Below are positions 10,950-53,022 of a DNA stretch of 64,000 nucleotides, in pieces. Origin of the DNA: a virus (Duplodnaviria; Heunggongvirae; Uroviricota; Caudoviricetes); the IMG/VR virus record IMGVR_UViG_2645727901_000008; one strand, written 5' to 3'. Each line of letters begins with the position of its first letter. Position 1 is the stretch's first letter. Made by a program: the position numbers and the translations under genes. The notes under the pieces were generated by a model. That model made no database searches. It saw nothing but the letters and a program-made list of their open reading frames with translations, and had not been told where the DNA came from.

Positions 10950-11567
10950 TCATTTTTGTCGGATCTTTTCCAGCATATTTAATTCATTATCACTTTCTGC
11001 TGCTGAGACGGTTGGCCTCACATTTCCGAAATATTTCCTGTGAGACTCATGACTTATGTATTCACCGACAGTTTCATTCTTGAATATACGAATTTGACAT
11101 ATGCGAGATCCAACAATAAGTTCTACAGGGCTATTCCCATGATTAAATAACTCTAAAGATATACAGCCTCTGTACCCTGGTTGTATCATGGTATTTAATG
11201 AAAGACCAAGCCTTGTATAGCTGCTTCTGGACAATACATCAGCGTAGCAATCTGGTGGCAAACAAACATATTCTAATGTTGTTGCCAGTACCACTTGATT
11301 CGGGTAAACAATGAATCTATCCCCAAGATCTCTCCTTGTTTCCTGGAAAAATGTTCTGATTGGTTGATGAGTATCATTGTTTTTTGATGGAATTAACTCT
11401 ATTGACGGCTTCCTTGTCATAATAGACACTAAAAAATCGTAACCAAGTCTAAGGTCTATGGTGAAGTTCCCAATTTGGTTTTTATTTAGAAGAGGTTCAA
11501 TGAACAACGACTCAGGTTCTTCTGATTCATAATATTGCAGCAATTCAGCTTTGCTTAGGAGATTCAT
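10950..11567 (-). CDS. Minimal dCTP deaminase / dUTPase-fold enzyme (Dcd-like), third gene of the cassette
   Basis: SRSSYTRLGL versus E. coli Dcd GRSSLARLGL. IQPGYRGCISLELFN versus IDPGWSGCIVLEFYN, including the catalytic Glu. TIDLRLG versus TVDVRLG. ATG 11567 overlaps the upstream stop (ATGA) and has a GGAG SD. Confidence 0.7.
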   Translation of the reverse strand: MNLLSKAELLQYYESEEPESLFIEPLLNKNQIGNFTIDLRLGYDFLVSIMTRKPSIELIPSKNNDTHQPIRTFFQETRRDLGDRFIVYPNQVVLATTLEYVCLPPDCYADVLSRSSYTRLGLSLNTMIQPGYRGCISLELFNHGNSPVELIVGSRICQIRIFKNETVGEYISHESHRKYFGNVRPTVSAAESDNELNMLEKIRQK

Positions 11568-12637
11568 TGTGCACTCCATTTTTCAAGAATCATTACGTTT
11601 CGAATCGATTTTTCAACCAAATCATTTATAGTTTTTTCTATGGCTTCTTGTGACAACCCAGACCATATACCCGTAGGTTTTTCCCATTCAGAGCATAAGT
11701 ACTGCCAGCTGCTGTTAATAAAAGCATGCATTTCATTGTGGTCGCGAATAACAAAAGGACGCACATTATCAAAAGCTGATTTCACATCAAGCAAAGGTGT
11801 CGGCAATGTCAAACAAGGAGAAATAATCTGCCCACCATTATGTAAGGCTGATATCACAGCATTGAACATGCCAACAACTGGATTTTCCACTTTGTTCAAA
11901 AAGTCGCTTACAATTTTAACTCTATCTTCTGTGGATGGGTGAGTATAGCTTGCAGGATGAGAGCCAGCTAATTTGTATAAGAAATCTACCCCACTTTTTC
12001 CAATAAATTGGGCACTAAATAGATCTGCAAAATATTCTCTGCAATGATTTATCCAAATAACATCAGGTAGATTACTCCATTCTGGTCCAGGAAGTGTGCC
12101 TTTGTCCTTGGAACGATAGTTAAGACAGGCAAGCTCAGAAATACCTTTGCTAATATCAACGAAATGTCCCAATTCGTGATATAAAGGTATAGAGCATAAT
12201 GGTCGTCTTCTGTACATTTCAGGTAATGAAATCTGAATTAATTCGACATCGAATTTGACATTTAAAACTTCGTCAAATAAAGAATACAAATTCTTGTTTA
12301 CAGACTTAAAATAAAACCCATGCATATCTGGAGATAGGGCTGTGGTTATAAGTGTTTTTTCACTTATCCATTTTTTACAGGCATCATTTAAGCAATAGAC
12401 AATCTCGTAGGGAATTTTCTTTGTAGTACTGCCAGTGAAAAAATTAACTGCATCGGTGATAAAAAAAGTACAATCCGCAATTATTTTATCAGCAACATTC
12501 ACATGGTTTTCATAGAGCTTATCCACCGCTTCTTGTAGAACAGCAAGATATTCATGCATGTCTTTAGAAAAATAGGGAGATTCTGATATCTCCCTTAGCT
12601 TATTTCGAACTAATGTAAGTTGTGTAAATGCAAGCAT
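11564..12637 (-). CDS. Soluble M48-like zinc metallopeptidase-motif protein (HExxH...ExxAD...HPxxxxR)
   Basis: YHELGHFVD, then REYFADLFSA, then SYTHPSTEDRV, in the order I recall for HtpX/Ste24-type peptidases. No obvious TM segment. AT-rich. Confidence 0.5.
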   Translation of the reverse strand: MLAFTQLTLVRNKLREISESPYFSKDMHEYLAVLQEAVDKLYENHVNVADKIIADCTFFITDAVNFFTGSTTKKIPYEIVYCLNDACKKWISEKTLITTALSPDMHGFYFKSVNKNLYSLFDEVLNVKFDVELIQISLPEMYRRRPLCSIPLYHELGHFVDISKGISELACLNYRSKDKGTLPGPEWSNLPDVIWINHCREYFADLFSAQFIGKSGVDFLYKLAGSHPASYTHPSTEDRVKIVSDFLNKVENPVVGMFNAVISALHNGGQIISPCLTLPTPLLDVKSAFDNVRPFVIRDHNEMHAFINSSWQYLCSEWEKPTGIWSGLSQEAIEKTINDLVEKSIRNVMILEKWSAQ

Positions 12638-12942
12638 TAAATGTACTCTAATACATTCCGGGCCATTACGGGTTCTAACATATCTTCGCTAGTTACTTTG
12701 GTTAGCACCTGGGCGAGCGCCTTAGTGTGGCGTATCTCTACCGCGAGCGAGATGGACTCTCTGTGAGAAGGAATCTGTAATTGATCACCTTTATCTACAC
12801 TTAAGTTTGAGGCTTCTCTGATCACCTCATAAACCCGTAACTTTAACTGCTGTGACACTTCTTGTTGAGATGCTATAAGCTGAAGTACAGTCTTGATCAA
12901 CTTCAAAGAATCAGAAGCTTGCTGAGGAACCGCATAGAGCAT
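12637..12942 (-). CDS. Small helical protein, first gene of the cassette
   Basis: 101 aa with an AAAGGAGGGG SD. Its stop overlaps the next start (TAATG). Confidence 0.4.
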   Translation of the reverse strand: MLYAVPQQASDSLKLIKTVLQLIASQQEVSQQLKLRVYEVIREASNLSVDKGDQLQIPSHRESISLAVEIRHTKALAQVLTKVTSEDMLEPVMARNVLEYI

Positions 12943-13267: not shown

Positions 13268-13555
13268 TTAGCTCATTACTCGATAACGACGGGGAATGGA
13301 ATTCTCCATCAGGCCACGAATTACTCCCGCCTCACGTAGTTCCTCTGTCTCCCAGTATCTGTTTGTCACCAGATCGAGGCTGGCTATGACCTTGTGCCGG
13401 TCATTCGGCATAGCTAATTTTTCTGCTATAACCATCAGTGAAAACTCTTCATCCAGTAGAATTTGATAGCAGTTTTTTGATAGTTCCACTTCCCTTATGA
13501 GACTGAAACGTCGCTGGATTGTGGCAGTAGAGTAAGTGAAATCTATTTTCTTCAT
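13268..13555 (-). CDS. Hypothetical protein, distal gene of immI-like module 1
   Basis: 95-aa ORF downstream of the antirepressor gene, after an intercistronic hairpin. Confidence 0.35.
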   Translation of the reverse strand: MKKIDFTYSTATIQRRFSLIREVELSKNCYQILLDEEFSLMVIAEKLAMPNDRHKVIASLDLVTNRYWETEELREAGVIRGLMENSIPRRYRVMS

Positions 13556-13587
13556 CGTGCGGAGAATCCGATTATTTAGCAGTTAAA

Positions 13588-13606
13588 GCCCCGGACAGGC
13601 CGGGGC
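13588..13606 (-). terminator. GC hairpin, homologous to the module-2 terminator but with a weak U-run
   Basis: GCCCCGG-N5-CCGGGGC. Same stem as 51537-51555. Confidence 0.35.
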
Positions 13607-13614
13607 AACAGTAA

Positions 13615-14541
13615 TTAACTAACAATCCAGTCCATAGCAACCATATCCTCTGGCGCTAAATCAATAGCATGGATTTTCCCATCCCGGATAGTGCGCCAGT
13701 GCTTCCTTGATCCGCCTTCGGGCCATACCCATACACCTTCAGACCATGAGGCGCGACGGCATACCGTTGCATATCCACTTCTGATCTTCTCTCTGGCGGT
13801 ATGCAGTGACAGATTATCTTTTGGGATTTCCGGTAAAGGATGATGGATTGCCTGAAACAGCCCCATCTTGGGATGATACCAGCGTTTGTTGCGTGGTTCT
13901 GCCTCCGACATAACCTGCTTGAAGGCTTTCTGGAAGGGGGCCAGGGCCACAATGGAGCGTCGCGCAAGCAAACCATCTGGAGTTAAAAACTCATGCGTAT
14001 CGGTGGGAATCCGGAAAGCGTTAACCAGGTTGCGACATTTGGCTTCGGTCAGGCCACATTTCGCCGCCAGCTGGCGGTAGCCAATGTAGCCTTCCGGAAT
14101 ATTGCCTTTCTTTATTTGCTCGAGTGTTTCAGCGACCATCGATACTTGTGCTGATACCTCGGCTACCTGGGCATTTACGGCGTTGATCCGGCGTTCATGC
14201 TCAAGATGCATTTGCGCCATTTCAGCCAGGATTTCGGCTTTTGATTTTAACTGTACCCGGGCATTCTCCAGTTCGCGCCAGCGGTCCACCAGCCGGGCGG
14301 TGAATTCGGGAGAGAGCTGCGCGACGACGACAATACTATCGCGCTTGCCTTGCTCGCCTTCGAAGACGTAATAGCTCGCCGGGCGGCCTGCGGTGGGCTT
14401 TTCCTCAATTTGAGGAAAAGATATTACGCCCCGTTCCGCCAGGTGTTCAATGGTGCGTTTAACGTTATCAGGGCGCTTACCTACCAGTTCCGCGATCTCA
14501 ATGCTGGTCATTGTCGCTTTTTGAGAGATGGACAGATTCAT
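13615..14541 (-). CDS. ant: Antirepressor-type protein (Rha/Ant N-terminal domain) fused to a C-terminal DUF2829-like domain
   Basis: MTSIEIAELVGKRPDNVKRTIEHL..GRPASYYVFEGEQGKRDSIVVVAQLSPEFTARLVDRWRELE (Rha-like). The C-terminus RRASWSEGVWVWP..DMVAMDWIVS parallels the separate 66-aa ORF at 51564. Occupies the P1 ant position after icd. Confidence 0.65.
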   Translation of the reverse strand: MNLSISQKATMTSIEIAELVGKRPDNVKRTIEHLAERGVISFPQIEEKPTAGRPASYYVFEGEQGKRDSIVVVAQLSPEFTARLVDRWRELENARVQLKSKAEILAEMAQMHLEHERRINAVNAQVAEVSAQVSMVAETLEQIKKGNIPEGYIGYRQLAAKCGLTEAKCRNLVNAFRIPTDTHEFLTPDGLLARRSIVALAPFQKAFKQVMSEAEPRNKRWYHPKMGLFQAIHHPLPEIPKDNLSLHTAREKIRSGYATVCRRASWSEGVWVWPEGGSRKHWRTIRDGKIHAIDLAPEDMVAMDWIVS

Positions 14542-14756
14542 CAGTGCGCCTCCACGCAGTTCATCGGCAGATTCCAGTAATTGAGGATCTCCATCGCATC
14601 AAGAGTGAAGCGAGCAGCAAAAATGCAGGGTTCTTCGGGAAGGTATGAGCGCGCCTCTGCTTCGGTAGCAGCCATGACGCAGATATACAGGTGTTTTTGG
14701 CAGGAATAGAAACGCCAGATAAATTCAGAATGAGTTGGGGTAGGGATAGTAGCCAT
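14541..14756 (-). CDS. icd: Icd-like small protein (cell-division-inhibitor family), module 1
   Basis: 71 aa, EFIWRF motif, paralogue of 52468-52692. TGATG coupling to ant. Its SD is covered by the b2 target of the c4-like RNA. Confidence 0.55.
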   Translation of the reverse strand: MATIPTPTHSEFIWRFYSCQKHLYICVMAATEAEARSYLPEEPCIFAARFTLDAMEILNYWNLPMNCVEAH

Positions 14757-14812
14757 ATTGGCAGCCTCCTTTGACTAAGTTAAGGAGCTACCGCGTGAGG
14801 TTCCAATCTCAA

Positions 14813-14892
14813 TGGCGGTAGCACTGACTGGGTTGGAACTACCGGCGTCAAAGGGAACCGGCCTGCCTTTCGGCAGCCCAGCCAGCACTACC
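14813..14892 (-). ncRNA. c4: c4-like antisense immunity RNA, module 1 (~77-80 nt)
   Basis: - 16-bp terminal helix GGUAGUGCUGGCUGGG / CCCAGUCAGUGCUACC, then GCCA.
- Internal CUGCC-GAAA-GGCAG hairpin.
- Loop CCUUUGAC and single-stranded GUUCCAA each have complements both upstream and downstream; the downstream copy overlaps the icd SD.
- Length fits the 77-nt P1 c4. Confidence 0.7.
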
Positions 14893-14941
14893 ATTGATCT
14901 CTGAGCTAAACGCTACGTATGGCTGTGCGATGGCATGACAC

Positions 14942-14963
14942 AAAAAAAGACGCTTTCGGCGTC
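14942..14963 (-). terminator. Hairpin plus U7 between the a1/b1 boxes and c4 (module 1)
   Basis: Minus strand: GACGC-CGAAA-GCGTC followed by TTTTTTT. Confidence 0.55.
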
Positions 14964-15068
14964 TGTGTCGCCTTTGACATTATCCGGGGTTCCAATCCCG
15001 GCACCCGTTTTTCTAAGGTGCCGTAGAAATATACCCCACGATAATGCCAGGGCGCAACAGTCAGTATT

Positions 15069-15236
15069 TTATGCTTTGGCGGATTTCTTCCGGGCTTGCT
15101 TGCAGGCGTAGGCCATTGCTTTAGCTTTCACTTCATCCAGCTTCCCGGTGATCGCTTCTTTTCCGAGAGTGACAAACCAGTCATAGCAACCGCCAGTGAT
15201 GTTCTGGATTTGAAAGTTGAGGTAGCGAACGGTCAT
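15069..15236 (-). CDS. Possible 55-aa ORF, coupled to a 29-aa ORF (15233-15322)
   Basis: Own translation: MTVRYLNFQIQNITGGCYDWFVTLGKEAITGKLDEVKAKAMAYACKQARKKSAKA. ATGA overlap with the upstream mini-ORF MNSYCLFPSLVVRHSRDNLHSLLALGVSK, which has an AAGGAG SD. Confidence 0.3.
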   Translation of the reverse strand: MTVRYLNFQIQNITGGCYDWFVTLGKEAITGKLDEVKAKAMAYACKQARKKSAKA

Positions 15237-15557: not shown

Positions 15558-15574
15558 TGTTAGAAAACTAATTT
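15558..15574 (+). promoter_or_regulatory. 17-bp motif copy (candidate C1-type operator)
   Basis: TGTTAGAAAACTAATTT at the ref 3' end, upstream (on the minus strand) of the immI-1 leader. Minus-strand TTGAAT-17-TACATT lies just downstream. Confidence 0.45.
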
Positions 15575-16146
15575 ATCAATTCAATCGCCATCTGATACAA
15601 CGTCATTTCATCGGCATTGTGCCGCATGAAATCTGCTTTTCCGCCTATTTTTCCGTCAGCATGAACAGGGACCAGCCAGGGATATTGTTCTCGGACCTCG
15701 GCTGGCGCTGCGTACTGGTGGTGCCATTTACACAAAGGGAGGACATATTTATGCGCGTTCTCTGCCGTTCTCCCGAAGATATGGTGCAGGGATACTACTG
15801 GGCTATGTTGTCCGTGAATATGGCAGGCAATGCAGGGGAGAGTACCGATAGCGGTCTGTATCCGGCGTTCATCAGCTGTGAGTGATCTGCCCTTCAGGCC
15901 GCGTGACGTGCGTGTTTTTTTGGGCGGAGCGGATACAGCTTTATCTTTTCTCCGCTGTTCATATTGCTTTGCTTTTTCAATTTTCTTTTGCCGATATTCA
16001 GGCGATGCGGCTTTTTCTCTCGCTCGCTGCTGCTGGCGTTGAGCTTGTTGAAGGCGCTTTGCCCTTTGTTCCTCTCGCCAGGCCGGGTCAGCCAATTTTT
16101 GCATGGCTTTTTGTCTCTGTTTCTCCCAATAGCTCTGTTTCTGCAT
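15568..16146 (-). CDS. ref: Ref recombination-enhancement nuclease (HNH-type, RecA-dependent in P1)
   Basis: Basic N-terminus plus RGLKGR..ADERRI..LPCIACHIHG..SLHHI.GRT..LPLCKWHHQYAAPAEVREQYPWLVPVHADG, which closely matches P1 Ref as I recall it. Confidence 0.85.
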   Translation of the reverse strand: MQKQSYWEKQRQKAMQKLADPAWREEQRAKRLQQAQRQQQRAREKAASPEYRQKKIEKAKQYEQRRKDKAVSAPPKKTRTSRGLKGRSLTADERRIQTAIGTLPCIACHIHGQHSPVVSLHHIFGRTAENAHKYVLPLCKWHHQYAAPAEVREQYPWLVPVHADGKIGGKADFMRHNADEMTLYQMAIELIN

Positions 16147-16263: not shown

Positions 16264-16419
16264 ATGATGCTTATAGCTTTAAGTGCGATCCACCAGCCAT
16301 CTGTGAATGAAATTGGCCTGTTCTATGTGTTGTTTTTCGGGGCGTTGGCGCTACTTGAGCTTGGTATTGAGCTTTTCGCAGTGCTTATGTTTTGCGTCAC
16401 GATTTTGGGGAAATTTTGA
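16264..16419 (+). CDS. 51-aa hydrophobic peptide, first gene of the early operon
   Basis: Own translation: MMLIALSAIHQPSVNEIGLFYVLFFGALALLELGIELFAVLMFCVTILGKF. GGAGG SD. TGATG coupling to the next gene. Confidence 0.4.
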   Translation: MMLIALSAIHQPSVNEIGLFYVLFFGALALLELGIELFAVLMFCVTILGKF

Positions 16420-17042
16420 TGGTGAAACGAGTTTTGAAAATTTACATCGCGGGGCCGATGACTGGTTATCCAGATTACAACCGTGCTGCGTTTAATGCGA
16501 AAGCGAGCGAGCTGATGGCTGAAGGGCATATCGTTCTGAATCCAGCTGTGTTACCTGGTGGCCTTTGTCAGAGTGAATACATGGATATTTGCCTGGCAAT
16601 GGTGCGTTCTGCTGATGCGATCTACTTGCTCAATCGATGGGAGGAATCGATTGGTGCTCGTGCAGAGCACGCGCTGGCTGAAAAGCTGGGGCTGACTGTA
16701 ATTTATGAATCACCAACCAACATTGAATGCCAGGTTGCTCCGCATATTTACCGGGAACTGGTCAATGCGTTACGTGATGTTGCTATTGAATGTCACGGCA
16801 CGGATCAGCTTCGCGCTCGCTTAAGCCAAACCCTTTCCAGTTACCTGTCTTTGGCTGAAGGATACAACCTCCGACAGCGAAGAATGGTCAAATTAATCAC
16901 TCTTTTATCGCAATCCCTTGCAAATGCTGAACCAACCAATCCGCTACCTGGTGACGCAATGAATTATCTGAAGTCATGCGGTGTTGTTTCTGAAGATGCA
17001 GTTCGTTTTGTGGAGTTTATGTCTCGGAGGATGTCGGCGTGA
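16419..17042 (+). CDS. DUF4406 / nucleoside 2-deoxyribosyltransferase-like protein with a C-terminal extension
   Basis: KIYIAGPMTGYPDYNRAAFNAKA..GHIVLNPA..DAIYLLNRWEESIGARAEHALAEKLG. Start taken at the ATG coupled to the upstream peptide (the track start 16392 is upstream of it). Confidence 0.6.
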   Translation: MVKRVLKIYIAGPMTGYPDYNRAAFNAKASELMAEGHIVLNPAVLPGGLCQSEYMDICLAMVRSADAIYLLNRWEESIGARAEHALAEKLGLTVIYESPTNIECQVAPHIYRELVNALRDVAIECHGTDQLRARLSQTLSSYLSLAEGYNLRQRRMVKLITLLSQSLANAEPTNPLPGDAMNYLKSCGVVSEDAVRFVEFMSRRMSA

Positions 17043-27143: not shown

Positions 27144-27523
27144 TGAGGCATATATCACCGGAAGAACTTATTGCGCTTCATGATGCGAATATAAGCCGCT
27201 ACGGCGGCCTGCCGGGAATGTCAGATCCGGGTAGGGCAGAGGCCATTATCGGGAGAGTTCAGGCCAGAGTTGCCTACGACGAGATCACCGACCTTTTCGA
27301 AGTCTCCGCCACCTACCTGGTGGCTACGGCGAGAGGGCATATATTCAATGATGCCAATAAGCGTACCGCGCTAAACAGTGCGCTGCTATTTCTACGCCGT
27401 AACGGTATACAGGTATATGATTCTCCCGTGCTGGTGGAACTTGCGGTGGGGGCCGCAACTGGTGAAATCCCCGTATCTTCAGTAGCGGAAAAACTACGTG
27501 AATTATTTGGTTCCAATATTTGA
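27143..27523 (+). CDS. doc: Doc toxin (Fic-fold kinase)
   Basis: [11 protein letters not shown] Fic-type motif, 126 aa, TAATG-coupled to phd. Confidence 0.9.
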
Positions 27524-51563: not shown

Positions 51564-51764
51564 TCAATTCACGATCCAATCATTACCGACTATATCAGCC
51601 GTCGATAAATCAACTTCCCGGATCTGGAGTCCATTAATACAAAACCATCCGGTAGTAGAGTAATTATCAGGCCAGGCCCATACACCAACACTCCATGCTT
51701 TACGGCGGCACACTTCAGCCTGTCCTTCCCTGATTTTTTTTACCGCCTGCATGATGTCCATCAC
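51564..51764 (-). CDS. Stand-alone DUF2829-like protein
   Basis: 66 aa: EVCRRKAWSVGVWAWP..STADIVGNDWIVN. Equivalent to the C-terminal domain fused to the module-1 antirepressor. Confidence 0.45.
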   Translation of the reverse strand: MMDIMQAVKKIREGQAEVCRRKAWSVGVWAWPDNYSTTGWFCINGLQIREVDLSTADIVGNDWIVN

Positions 51765-52468
51765 TCACCTCCCCAACCGATCACCTGGAATTGCCCCATT
51801 TTGGGGTGATACCAGCGTTTTCCTCGGTGTTCAGCCTCCGACATCATCCGGTTAAAAGCATTCATGAAGGGAGATAAGGCCACGATGGAACGACGCGACA
51901 ATACCCCCTCTGGAGTTAAAAACTCATGTGTATCGGTGGGGATCCGGTAAGCGTTAACCAGGTTGCGACATTTGGCTTCGGTCAGGCCGCATTTTGCCGC
52001 CAGCTGGCGGTAGCCAATGTAACCTTCCGGCATGTTGCCCTTCTTGATTTGCTCGACGGTTTCTACCACCTGGCTAACCTTTGACTCAACAACATGAAGC
52101 CGCTTTTGCTGCTGAACTGCATTTGCAGCCATTGCGGCGATCATCTCTATTTCGGTCAACGGCTGGCGTGCTTGTTCTTCCAGTTCGCGCCAGCGGTCCA
52201 CCAGCCGGGCGGTGAATTCGGGAGAGAGCTGCGCGACGACGATAATGCTATCGCGCTTGCCTTGCTCGCCTTCGAAGACGTAAGCCTCAACACTACGTCG
52301 TAGTCCTAAGTTATTGATTTTTTCGAAAACCTCAATTTGAGGACGAACAATAACGCCACCTTTGTCTAATGTCTCAATAGTGCGTTTCACATTGTCATGA
52401 CGTTTTCCCACCAGCTCCGCGATCTCAATGCTGGTCATTGATGGCTTTTCGAGAATGCAGATATCCAT
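51761..52468 (-). CDS. ant: Antirepressor-type protein (Rha/Ant family), module 2
   Basis: MTSIEIAELVGKRHDNVKRTIETL..YVFEGEQGKRDSIIVVAQLSPEFTARLVDRWRELE. The central and C-terminal parts are near-identical to 13615-14541. Confidence 0.65.
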   Translation of the reverse strand: MDICILEKPSMTSIEIAELVGKRHDNVKRTIETLDKGGVIVRPQIEVFEKINNLGLRRSVEAYVFEGEQGKRDSIIVVAQLSPEFTARLVDRWRELEEQARQPLTEIEMIAAMAANAVQQQKRLHVVESKVSQVVETVEQIKKGNMPEGYIGYRQLAAKCGLTEAKCRNLVNAYRIPTDTHEFLTPEGVLSRRSIVALSPFMNAFNRMMSEAEHRGKRWYHPKMGQFQVIGWGGE

Positions 52469-52692
52469 CAGTGAGCCTCCGCAATGCCGGGATTGGTAAT
52501 ATTGCGATACCAGGGATTGGTGTTTGGTTGTGGGGAAGTGGAGAAACGACCAGTGAGAACGCCATACTGATCAGGGATCAGAGAACGGGCTTCTTTTTCA
52601 GTTGCGGCAATTGCGAAGTGATCGCAGTGTTTTTGCAGGGAGTGAAAACGCCAGATGAATTCTGGACGTGAGCAAGGATTGGCATTAACCAT
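52468..52692 (-). CDS. icd: Icd-like small protein, module 2
   Basis: 74 aa, EFIWRF motif, ends AEAH like its paralogue (VEAH). TGATG coupling to ant. Confidence 0.55.
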   Translation of the reverse strand: MVNANPCSRPEFIWRFHSLQKHCDHFAIAATEKEARSLIPDQYGVLTGRFSTSPQPNTNPWYRNITNPGIAEAH

Positions 52693-52740
52693 AGTTACGG
52701 CCTCACTAACAGGTTTAACAACCTGCTACCCGCTGCTAAA

Positions 52741-52819
52741 CAGGTGGCAGGACGTGACGGGGTTAGCAGACTGGCGTTAGTGAAACCAGCAGGCCGAAGC
52801 CTCCCCATCACGCCCCACC
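52741..52819 (-). ncRNA. c4: c4-like antisense immunity RNA, module 2 (~77 nt)
   Basis: Same architecture as module 1: terminal helix GGUGG..GCGUGAUGGGG / CCCCGUCACGU..CCACC, a GGC-UUCG-GCC hairpin, loop CACUAAC and single-stranded CUGCUAA. Each has complements upstream (52888, 52902) and downstream (52704 over the SD, 52733). Confidence 0.65.
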
Positions 52820-52851
52820 ATAATTTGGGCGTAACGCGGTTTTACGGACAC

Positions 52852-52880
52852 AAAAATACCGCAATATCGGATATCTGCGG
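52852..52880 (-). terminator. Hairpin plus U-run between the a1/b1 boxes and c4 (module 2)
   Basis: Minus strand: CCGCA..TGCGG followed by TATTTTTG. Positional equivalent of 14942-14963. Confidence 0.4.
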
Positions 52881-53022
52881 TTGTCCGCACTAACATTCAG
52901 GCTGCTAAACCCGGTCGCAGAATTTGCTACGACGACATGAATATAAGCCTGAAAACATGGAAGATCAACTAAAAATTTCAGCAATAGATGACTTCAGTCG
53001 ATGATGCAGATCATACATTCCG

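Follow-up and report, generated by a model that had tools for sequence, protein, structure and literature searches.

Module 1 is a small operon on the minus strand of a 64,000-nt stretch of viral DNA (Caudoviricetes; IMG/VR record IMGVR_UViG_2645727901_000008), referred to here as the window. It occupies positions ~15057-13588 and, read on the minus strand, consists of a putative promoter, the short boxes a1 and b1, an intrinsic terminator, a C4 antisense RNA, boxes a2 and b2, the cell-division inhibitor gene icd, and an antirepressor gene (ant). A preliminary description made from the letters alone had recognized the logic of the P1 immI operon at this place. That reading holds up: Rfam recognizes the C4 RNA, the icd product shares identity with P1 Icd, the targets of the RNA covary with it, b2 lies on the icd ribosome-binding site, and icd and ant overlap in TGATG. 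A comparison with the experimentally annotated features of P1 shows the same order and spacing of a1, b1, c4, a2, b2, icd, and ant, and all of the coordinates described previously (the boxes, the hairpin with its U7 tract, the RNA, the Shine–Dalgarno sequence, and three open reading frames [ORFs]) match a direct reading of the minus strand. With these features, module 1 is very probably a functional homologue of the P1/P7 immI operon in a D6-like plasmid prophage.

Escherichia phage D6, itself a plasmid prophage of the P1-like kind, is 95% identical to the window in this region, and matches are found in 458 plasmid records, most of them from E. coli and Salmonella. The same locus is found as the orf81-orf86 region of D6 and in the D6-like plasmids pYU39_89 and pEC213_2, and in both plasmids the 300-nt control region around C4 is 100% identical to that of the window. 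Because both c4/icd regions of pYU39_89 are already in the published literature, module 1 is, as judged by its exact sequence, already known from published D6-like plasmids. The ImmI-like region of pYU39_89 adjoins a peptidoglycan hydrolase gene, which fits a second operon of the window (module 2), with module 1 as the second region. All module 1 ORFs are intact here and in pYU39_89, pEC213_2, and locus L018. The D6 annotation has Icd-like, Ant, and PmgF-like genes at this place and no RNA feature.

The C4 RNA, its boxes, and the genes downstream

The C4 RNA is matched over the full length of its Rfam model (RF01695, model positions 1-87) at 14898-14811 (-), with 77.1 bits against a gathering score of 45. 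Folding of the RNA at 14892-14813 gives -46.7 kcal/mol (z = -5.6), none of 200 shuffled sequences folds as well, and the 16-bp terminal helix, GAAA hairpin, and 3' GCCA of the preliminary description are all confirmed. By homology with the annotated 77-nt c4 RNA of P1, to which its ends were aligned, the mature RNA probably runs from 14892 to 14814 (79 nt, +/-1 nt). Its 5' end falls at AAU/GG and its 3' end at GCC(A), and the sequence context for RNase P is present, i.e., an invariant AU/GG, an acceptor-like stem, and a 3' GCCA.

Two segments of the RNA face the boxes. The first, b' (CCTTTGAC, 14854-14847), sits in the loop of hairpin 2, and the second, a' (GTTCCAA, 14839-14833), sits in a single-stranded segment; both are exact complements of their boxes, with 8-nt and 7-nt matches, just as had been claimed. 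Upstream of C4, box a1 is ATTGGAACC (RNA AUUGGAACC) at 14996-14988, with the core UUGGAAC pairing with a', and box b1 is GTCAAAGG (RNA GUCAAAGG) at 14978-14971, pairing with b'. Downstream, box a2 (AUUGGAACC, 14807-14799) again pairs with a', and box b2 (GUCAAAGG, 14775-14768) overlaps the Shine–Dalgarno sequence AGGAGG (14770-14765) of the icd start codon at 14756, the two having AGG in common. By chance, the 9-mer ATTGGAACC would occur 0.24 times per strand; it is seen twice, flanking the C4 RNA. A third copy, at 27509, lacks a nearby b box and was taken as a chance occurrence.

The icd homologue (14541..14756, -) encodes 71 aa with 63% identity to P1 Icd over 59 aa (E = 5e-28), in agreement with the icd-like gene that had been proposed. 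The protein also matches phrog_1426 at 139 bits, and the D6 and PGAP annotations both call it Icd-like. The ant gene (13615..14541, -) follows directly, its start overlapping the icd stop by 1 nt (TGATG, base 14541). A stop/start overlap is common to P1 and module 1, with ATGA as the P1 version, and this arrangement suggests that translation of ant is coupled to that of icd.

The product of ant is a protein of 308 aa that matches phrog_63, "anti-repressor Ant," at 213 bits. Its N terminus is probably of the Rha type, in line with the earlier Rha/Ant-type label. The Pfam model Phage_pRha (PF09669) gives 29.6 bits, just under the cut-off of 29.9; the module 2 paralogue, 67% identical over the N-terminal 232 residues, reaches 36.8 bits, and the D6 orthologue reaches 36.9. 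The protein is not a homologue of P1 Ant, which has a KilAC/ANT domain, and a BLASTP comparison with P1 Ant1 found no similarity (E = 0.26). The fused form of the protein (308/313 aa) is conserved in D6, pYU39_89, and other plasmids. Its putative antirepressor action would be directed at a D6-type C1 repressor.

The operon can be closed shortly after ant. A hairpin just 3' of the gene (GCCCCGG-CCUGU-CCGGGGC, 13588..13606, -) is followed by a weak U-tract, UUUAACU, and is the probable end of the operon. The terminator scan made no call on it, while its counterpart in module 2 has a full U6 tract. Beyond it lies an ORF of 95 aa (13268..13555, -) that had been counted as the last gene of the module. 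This ORF is a homologue of P1 PmgF (39% identical, E = 1e-14), and it probably lies outside the operon. Because pmgF is outside immI in P1 and a G+C-rich hairpin comes after ant, the module was ended at ~13588.

Covariation of the boxes and the specificity switch

The complementarity between C4 and its boxes was followed over 17 loci. The set includes both modules of the window, D6, P1, Gifsy-1, two other P1-like phages, seven E. coli phages from outside the P1 group (Stx-converting phages, phiP27, ZX5, phiV10, and relatives), and two Klebsiella phages. A MAFFT alignment of the 17 loci (A3) misaligned the short boxes in loci with shorter spacing, and it was replaced by complement searches and a 10-locus alignment (A4). 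The complement searches looked for C4 segments with an exact reverse complement in both the leader and the trailer, i.e., upstream and downstream of the RNA. Most loci yield just a' and b', with targets at fixed positions, even though there are at least 10 types of a and at least 7 types of b across the set. The total complementarity of C4 with its cognate targets is 490, against 321 +/- 15 when the partners are permuted, and 0 of 20000 permutations reach the observed value.

The 10-locus alignment gives the same picture base pair by base pair. In all, 96.6-97.0% of cells are paired, compared with 82% in shuffles and 34-49% in slid controls. Changes on both sides of the pair are seen in 5 of 7 pairs of a1:a' (97% of cells paired), 5 of 8 pairs of b1:b' (100%), 5 of 7 pairs of a2:a' (100%), and 5 of 8 pairs of b2:b' (100%). 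The three helices of C4 itself are 100% paired at all 26 pairs, 12 of which change on both sides. The terminator helix is 71% paired in this alignment; four of its rows are shifted by 1-2 columns, which was treated as an alignment artefact. Box b2 overlaps the Shine–Dalgarno sequence in every locus examined.

The trailer holds one more conserved element. Between a2 and b2 lies GCGGUAGC (14787..14794, -), a sequence complementary to GCUACCGC, which forms the 3' strand of the terminal helix of C4. The element keeps a fixed position in all 17 loci and covaries with the C4 3' strand, the cognate complementarity averaging 6.8 nt versus 5.2 nt for noncognate combinations. In Gifsy-1 the counterpart is GGUGGUGA with UCACCACC. 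Possibly, this element offers an alternative pairing in the unprocessed transcript.

D6 carries different alleles of a (UUGAGAC) and b (GCAAAAGG) at all six sites. The window and D6 differ by 17 substitutions within 300 nt; 12 of these lie in the boxes, which make up 45 positions, and all 12 are compensatory (P = 1e-7). Because so many of the differences lie in the six boxes and all of these are compensatory, the sequences indicate a switch of immunity specificity. Predicted duplex energies go in the same direction, with the C4 RNA at -10.6/-14.9 kcal/mol on its own a2/b2, -4.5/-9.8 kcal/mol on the D6 targets, and -6.7/-8.9 kcal/mol on the targets of module 2. Modules 1 and 2 and D6 are therefore predicted not to cross-react.

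Module 2 is a second complete operon, at 51564-52946 (-) of the window, and its RNA part is nearly identical to P1 immI. It consists of a c4-a1b1 match, a hairpin plus U5, a second Rfam C4 match at 52825-52740, a2/b2, a 74-aa Icd, a 235-aa Rha-type antirepressor, and then a separate 66-aa Tad2-fold ORF at 51764-51564. The b boxes of module 2 are identical to those of P1 (GUUAGUG); its a boxes read UUAGCAG where P1 has UUGACAG, and this change is compensatory at each of the three sites.

A unit of the module 1 type occurs between pacB and c1 in some P1-like phages (Punavirus). Such C4 units are found in RCS47 (L005, 1802-2012), where the isrK-type leader is at threshold, and in 673R5 (L006, 1902-1989). 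RCS47 combines the a boxes of D6 with the b boxes of the window, and this mosaic suggests that specificity elements recombine. Together, the six-site change and the RCS47 mosaic show how heteroimmune specificities arise among plasmid prophages, which are common in E. coli and Salmonella.

The IsrK-type leader and control of the operon

The leader RNA upstream of C4 belongs to the IsrK type. At 15021-14943 (-), the Rfam model isrK (RF01394) is matched over its whole length (1-77) with 62.7 bits, above the gathering score of 50. The leader (14943..15021) consists of hairpin 1, hairpin 2 with a1 in its loop, single-stranded b1, and an intrinsic terminator, and it folds at -24.9 kcal/mol. The terminator, called by the terminator scan at 14964-14942 (-), has a 6-bp G+C-rich stem (AGACGC-CGAAA-GCGUCU) followed by U7. 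Its 3' arm GCG and its U-run are invariant across all 17 loci, and it is homologous both to the experimentally defined terminator of Gifsy-1 IsrK and to a hairpin plus U5 in P1. The preliminary description had listed this hairpin between a1/b1 and c4 as a difference from P1. It is not one: P1 has ACCGCA..TGCGGT plus ATTTTTG at the same place, with a loop of 12 nt, a hairpin that a simple terminator scan misses, and module 2 has the same hairpin too.

A second Rfam family, c4-a1b1 (RF03163), covers the same ground. Module 1 scores 22.4 bits on this model, below the threshold of 46.7 even though a1 and b1 are present, while module 2 (51.5), P1 (51.0), and Gifsy-1 (48.1) are at or above it. The P1 leader in turn matches the whole isrK model at 35 bits, and isrK is at threshold in 12 of the 13 other C4-bearing loci. 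We conclude that isrK and c4-a1b1 describe one element.

Upstream of the leader, a putative sigma-70 promoter lies at 15028..15057 (-), with a -35 of TTGCGC (15057-15052), an 18-nt spacer, and a -10 of TATATT (15033-15028), and the predicted transcription start is at about G15021. The -10 aligns with the -10 (TATAGT) of the annotated P1 promoter P1c4/P51b and with TATATT, TATAGT, or TACACT in 16 other loci, on which the assignment of the candidate promoter is based. The promoters of modules 1 and 2 have no common 12-mer with up to 2 mismatches.

Module 1 thus stands close to P1 and P7 in some respects and apart in others. The promoter, a1, b1, hairpin with U-tract, C4, a2, b2, icd, and overlapping antirepressor gene are shared, as are the C4 family and structure and the use of a and b boxes to set specificity. 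The box sequences themselves differ, and the spacer between terminator and C4 is 49 nt in module 1 versus ~30 nt in P1. The leader of module 1 matches isrK and not the c4-a1b1 model, whereas that of P1 reaches the c4-a1b1 threshold. P1 Ant has a KilAC/ANT domain, whereas the Rha-type antirepressor with a Tad2-fold tail is nonhomologous to it. Finally, kilA and repL follow the operon in P1 and do not in module 1.

IsrK was characterized in the Gifsy-1 prophage of Salmonella by Hershko-Shalev et al. (2016; PMC4825925). There, the IsrK terminator is partly read through into orf45-anrP, and the read-through transcript is processed to an RNA of ~80 nt, STnc1160. When IsrK is provided in trans, translation of the antirepressor rises ~100-fold; the translational effect is 139-fold, and the transcriptional effect, a rise of the long transcript, is 8-fold (PMC4825925). 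Mutations in a' raise basal expression 100- to 200-fold, and a1/a' double mutants did not have restored repression (PMC4825925), which fits a C4 model because a2 would be the repressive target. The authors compared their system with seqA and the CI RNA of P4 and never mentioned c4 or RNase P (PMC4825925), and a literature search found no paper that links isrK and c4 mechanistically.

The Gifsy-1 sequence itself makes this link. In L004 (NC_010392, 34131-34329), Rfam finds isrK at 79 bits, c4-a1b1 at 48 bits, above threshold and overlapping isrK, and C4 at 69 bits, exactly over "orf45"/STnc1160. When the published numbering was checked on this sequence, A107 proved to be the A of the first AUG, and the published compensatory pairs G28:C162 and G31:C159 are base pairs of a1:a'. 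Gifsy-1 also has an a2 box, and a b2 box over the anrP ribosome-binding site. As far as its sequence tells, "orf45"/STnc1160 turns out to be an unrecognized C4 RNA.

Gifsy-1 and module 1 share the isrK-family leader, a1 in the loop of hairpin 2, the intrinsic terminator, the C4 RNA followed by a2/b2, and an antirepressor as the regulated product. Gifsy-1 differs in lacking icd, so that b2 lies directly on the anrP ribosome-binding site, and in its boxes (a UUGGCGU, b UCACCG). The Gifsy-1 element resides in a lambdoid chromosomal prophage, and module 1 in a plasmid prophage.

From the homology, structure, complementarity, and covariation, we infer the following course of events for module 1. 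The promoter at ~15057-15028 would start a transcript at ~15021. Most transcripts would probably end at the terminator (14964-14942), giving an IsrK-type RNA of ~80 nt that carries a1 and b1. Read-through transcripts would contain C4, from which RNase P would cut at AAU/GG beside a tRNA-like acceptor stem ending in GCCA; with trimming of the 3' end, this would yield the C4 RNA of ~79 nt. Its loop segment b' would then bind b2, and its single strand a' would bind a2, on the same mRNA species. With b2 covering the ribosome-binding site of icd, that gene would remain untranslated, and because ant is expected to depend on icd translation through the stop/start overlap (and probably through Rho polarity as in P1), ant would be off and lysogeny kept. 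The free a1/b1 leader would most likely serve as a decoy for C4, as IsrK would in Gifsy-1, with the ratio of leader to C4 setting the threshold. The box sequences would define an immunity specificity without cross-match to module 2 or D6, and the antirepressor under this control is of the Rha type, with a Tad2-fold tail.

For P1, the C4 mechanism is reportedly described in Citron & Schuster 1990, Biere et al. 1992, and Hartmann et al. 1995. The translational block of icd by C4 and the polarity on ant are summarized in PMC8198154. Whether all C4 systems, P1 included, release the a1/b1 leader as an IsrK-type small RNA that titrates C4 is close to an even bet in our estimation. If the leader does act as a decoy, "orf45" of Gifsy-1 would therefore be a misread C4 RNA.

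Several points count against parts of this account. A simple promoter scan made no call at 15057-15028, where the -35 is poor and matches at only 3 of 6 positions. P1 has a C1 operator (Op51/Oc4) at its promoter, whereas a search with the P1 C1 operator consensus, allowing up to 3 mismatches, found no match anywhere in the window. The decoy step meets two objections from Gifsy-1, where the IsrK authors proposed a structural switch in cis and where constitutive STnc1160 left IsrK toxicity unrelieved (PMC4825925).

The strongest competitor to a translational block is control by attenuation, of the kind known for related small RNAs. The CI RNA of P4 (with seqA, seqB, and seqC) and the CA RNA of N15 resemble module 1 in that a small RNA is processed from a leader and has complementary boxes upstream and downstream. 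Both the P4 CI and the N15 CA RNA act by premature transcription termination, whereas in module 1 and P1 the downstream box lies on a ribosome-binding site. The immA operon of N15 (antA, icd, antB) also contains icd and is reportedly controlled by a small processed RNA. In module 1, C4 acting mainly on transcription would pair with nascent a1/b1 and cause termination at the hairpin plus U7, or with a2/b2 and cause Rho termination, so that it would control its own read-through and icd/ant transcriptionally and not by blocking ribosomes. In favor of this, b1 immediately precedes the conserved intrinsic terminator in each of the 17 loci, Rfam puts C4 and c4-a1b1 in one clan, and the IsrK paper notes the likeness to P4 seqA/CI along with the rise of the long transcript (PMC4825925). 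Still, the leader folds its terminator unaided, and a search of the leader for a competing anti-terminator found none of comparable stability. The candidate GGCG/CGCC is weak and also invariant, so that covariation cannot probe it. Pure attenuation would not need b2 on the Shine–Dalgarno sequence, where it lies in every locus, and the translational effect in Gifsy-1 far exceeds the transcriptional one (PMC4825925). We consider it improbable, at perhaps one chance in five, that C4 acts mainly through transcription, although attenuation may coexist with the translational block and does not exclude it.

Two further explanations both seem very unlikely. In one, 14894-14775 is a 39-aa leader ORF (the "ash family protein" of PGAP, analogous to orf45 of Gifsy-1) whose translation drives downstream expression, the RNA structure and boxes being secondary. 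An ATG at the 5' edge of C4 is indeed invariant, PGAP annotates the ORF in pEC213_2 and pYU39_89, and in Gifsy-1 a tagged orf45 protein was detected and expression of anrP was affected by the first AUG of orf45 (PMC4825925). The same AUGG, however, is the context for RNase P cleavage, the product is known to be an RNA in P1, and substitutions are compensatory in the RNA helices. The length of the ORF is 14 aa in both P1 and module 2; a Klebsiella phage has 15 aa, other loci have 35-45 aa, and in seven loci there is no stop in the 100 nt read downstream of C4. With an overlapping ORF this variable, ranging from 14 aa to one that continues in frame into the following gene, it is the RNA that is constrained, not a protein; the IsrK paper likewise reports nucleotide without amino acid conservation (PMC4825925). 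The other explanation takes module 1 as a redundant, decaying paralogue of module 2 (a P1-type immI at 52946-51564) with no present function. Two modules in one genome, with antirepressors 67% identical, could be read in this way, and we give it just as little credence. The ORFs are intact in the window, pYU39_89, pEC213_2, and L018, the RNA is well above the Rfam thresholds, and, compared with D6, the six boxes have all changed together, a pattern that requires selection for pairing. The homologue of immI acting through a translational block remains by far the preferred explanation.

The records of D6 and the related plasmids annotate no RNA and have spurious coding sequences (CDSs) over C4: PGAP places the 39-aa "ash family protein" there (window 14775-14894; L016 1876-1995), and in D6 orf84 is drawn over it on the plus strand (L001 4496-4795). 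In Stx phages, CDSs named "Ant" or "regulatory protein" start inside or upstream of isrK/C4 (L009 1574-2596); they are extended because the frame overlapping C4 runs into the downstream gene. Annotation pipelines routinely call false proteins across C4 RNAs, be it an "ash family protein," orf84, or an N-terminally extended Ant.

Operons of C4, icd, and an antirepressor are textbook P1 biology, and the module itself adds little to that. Its interest lies in the unification of isrK and C4, in the Tad2-fold fusion, and in a clear specificity switch. Through the unification, work on P1 immI and work on Salmonella IsrK, so far separate literatures, can inform one another, and the a1/b1 boxes, long unexplained, gain a suggested function.

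The Tad2-fold tail and neighboring genes

The antirepressor of module 1 ends in a predicted Tad2-fold (DUF2829-like) domain, at aa 244-308 (13618..13812, -). Module 2 encodes the counterpart of this segment as a stand-alone ORF of 66 aa, and the two are 45% identical (E = 5e-19). Because the N-terminal part and the tail match two separate ORFs of module 2, module 1 carries a gene fusion. The Pfam model Tad2-like (PF11195) has a cut-off of 25 bits, which neither the fused domain (9.5 bits) nor the stand-alone paralogue (14.9 bits) reaches. A relative found with the domain's own profile (P0008, E = 1.9e-4) scores 37.4 bits on the same model, above threshold, and a second relative nearly reaches it. 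The family is rare, with 7 relatives among 1.84 billion representatives in an exhaustive HMMER search and 3 hits for the 66-aa ORF in a word-indexed protein search.

The structure model of the domain (pLDDT 93) shows an N-terminal helix followed by a five-stranded sheet, a topology that fits published Tad2. The top 20 hits of a Foldseek search of the PDB are all Tad2 (TM 0.67-0.75, probability 1.00), and the next hits have a probability of at most 0.25. A sequence-profile search of the PDB gave nonsignificant matches, and three of the top four are Tad2/AcrIIA7. The fused DUF2829-like domain that had been proposed is accordingly upheld at the level of the fold and by a transitive sequence link, with Pfam below threshold, and as a prediction from the structure model the fold assignment is sound.

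Tad2 (DUF2829) is the anti-Thoeris sponge of SPO1, and it and ModTad2 have the same fold as the domain in the window. The motifs R-x-x-W (N-terminal) and D-W-I-V (C-terminal) are common to both, whereas identity is only 16-21%, the domain in the window has 65 aa against 89, and it is fused to an antirepressor. It is doubtful, though conceivable, that the modeled domain is a working binder of Thoeris-type signaling nucleotides (gcADPR or His-ADPR); the proposal that the leader is a C4 decoy is the more probable of the two. If the domain does bind such signals, the C4 switch would also control antidefense, besides prophage induction. In the fused form, signal binding could even alter the antirepressor and so link the lysis-lysogeny decision to an abortive-infection alarm.

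The surroundings of module 1 follow D6 on one side. As in D6, a Ref-like RecA-dependent nuclease (15568-16146, -; Pfam RecA_dep_nuc, 120 bits) and a DUF4406 protein (16392-17042, +) lie upstream. On the other side, the match to D6 ends directly past the PmgF-like gene. The segment at 10950-12942 (-) encodes a dCTP-deaminase-like protein of 209 aa (Pfam DCD, 107 bits) and ORFs of 357 aa and 101 aa that have no Pfam or PADLOC match, and it may be an accessory or defense island. PADLOC gave no match for the antirepressor, the Tad2-like ORF, or the neighboring dCTP-deaminase-like cluster. Farther away, the window holds a cluster of four tRNA genes at 37765-39613 (-), identified with the Rfam tRNA model at 42-72 bits.

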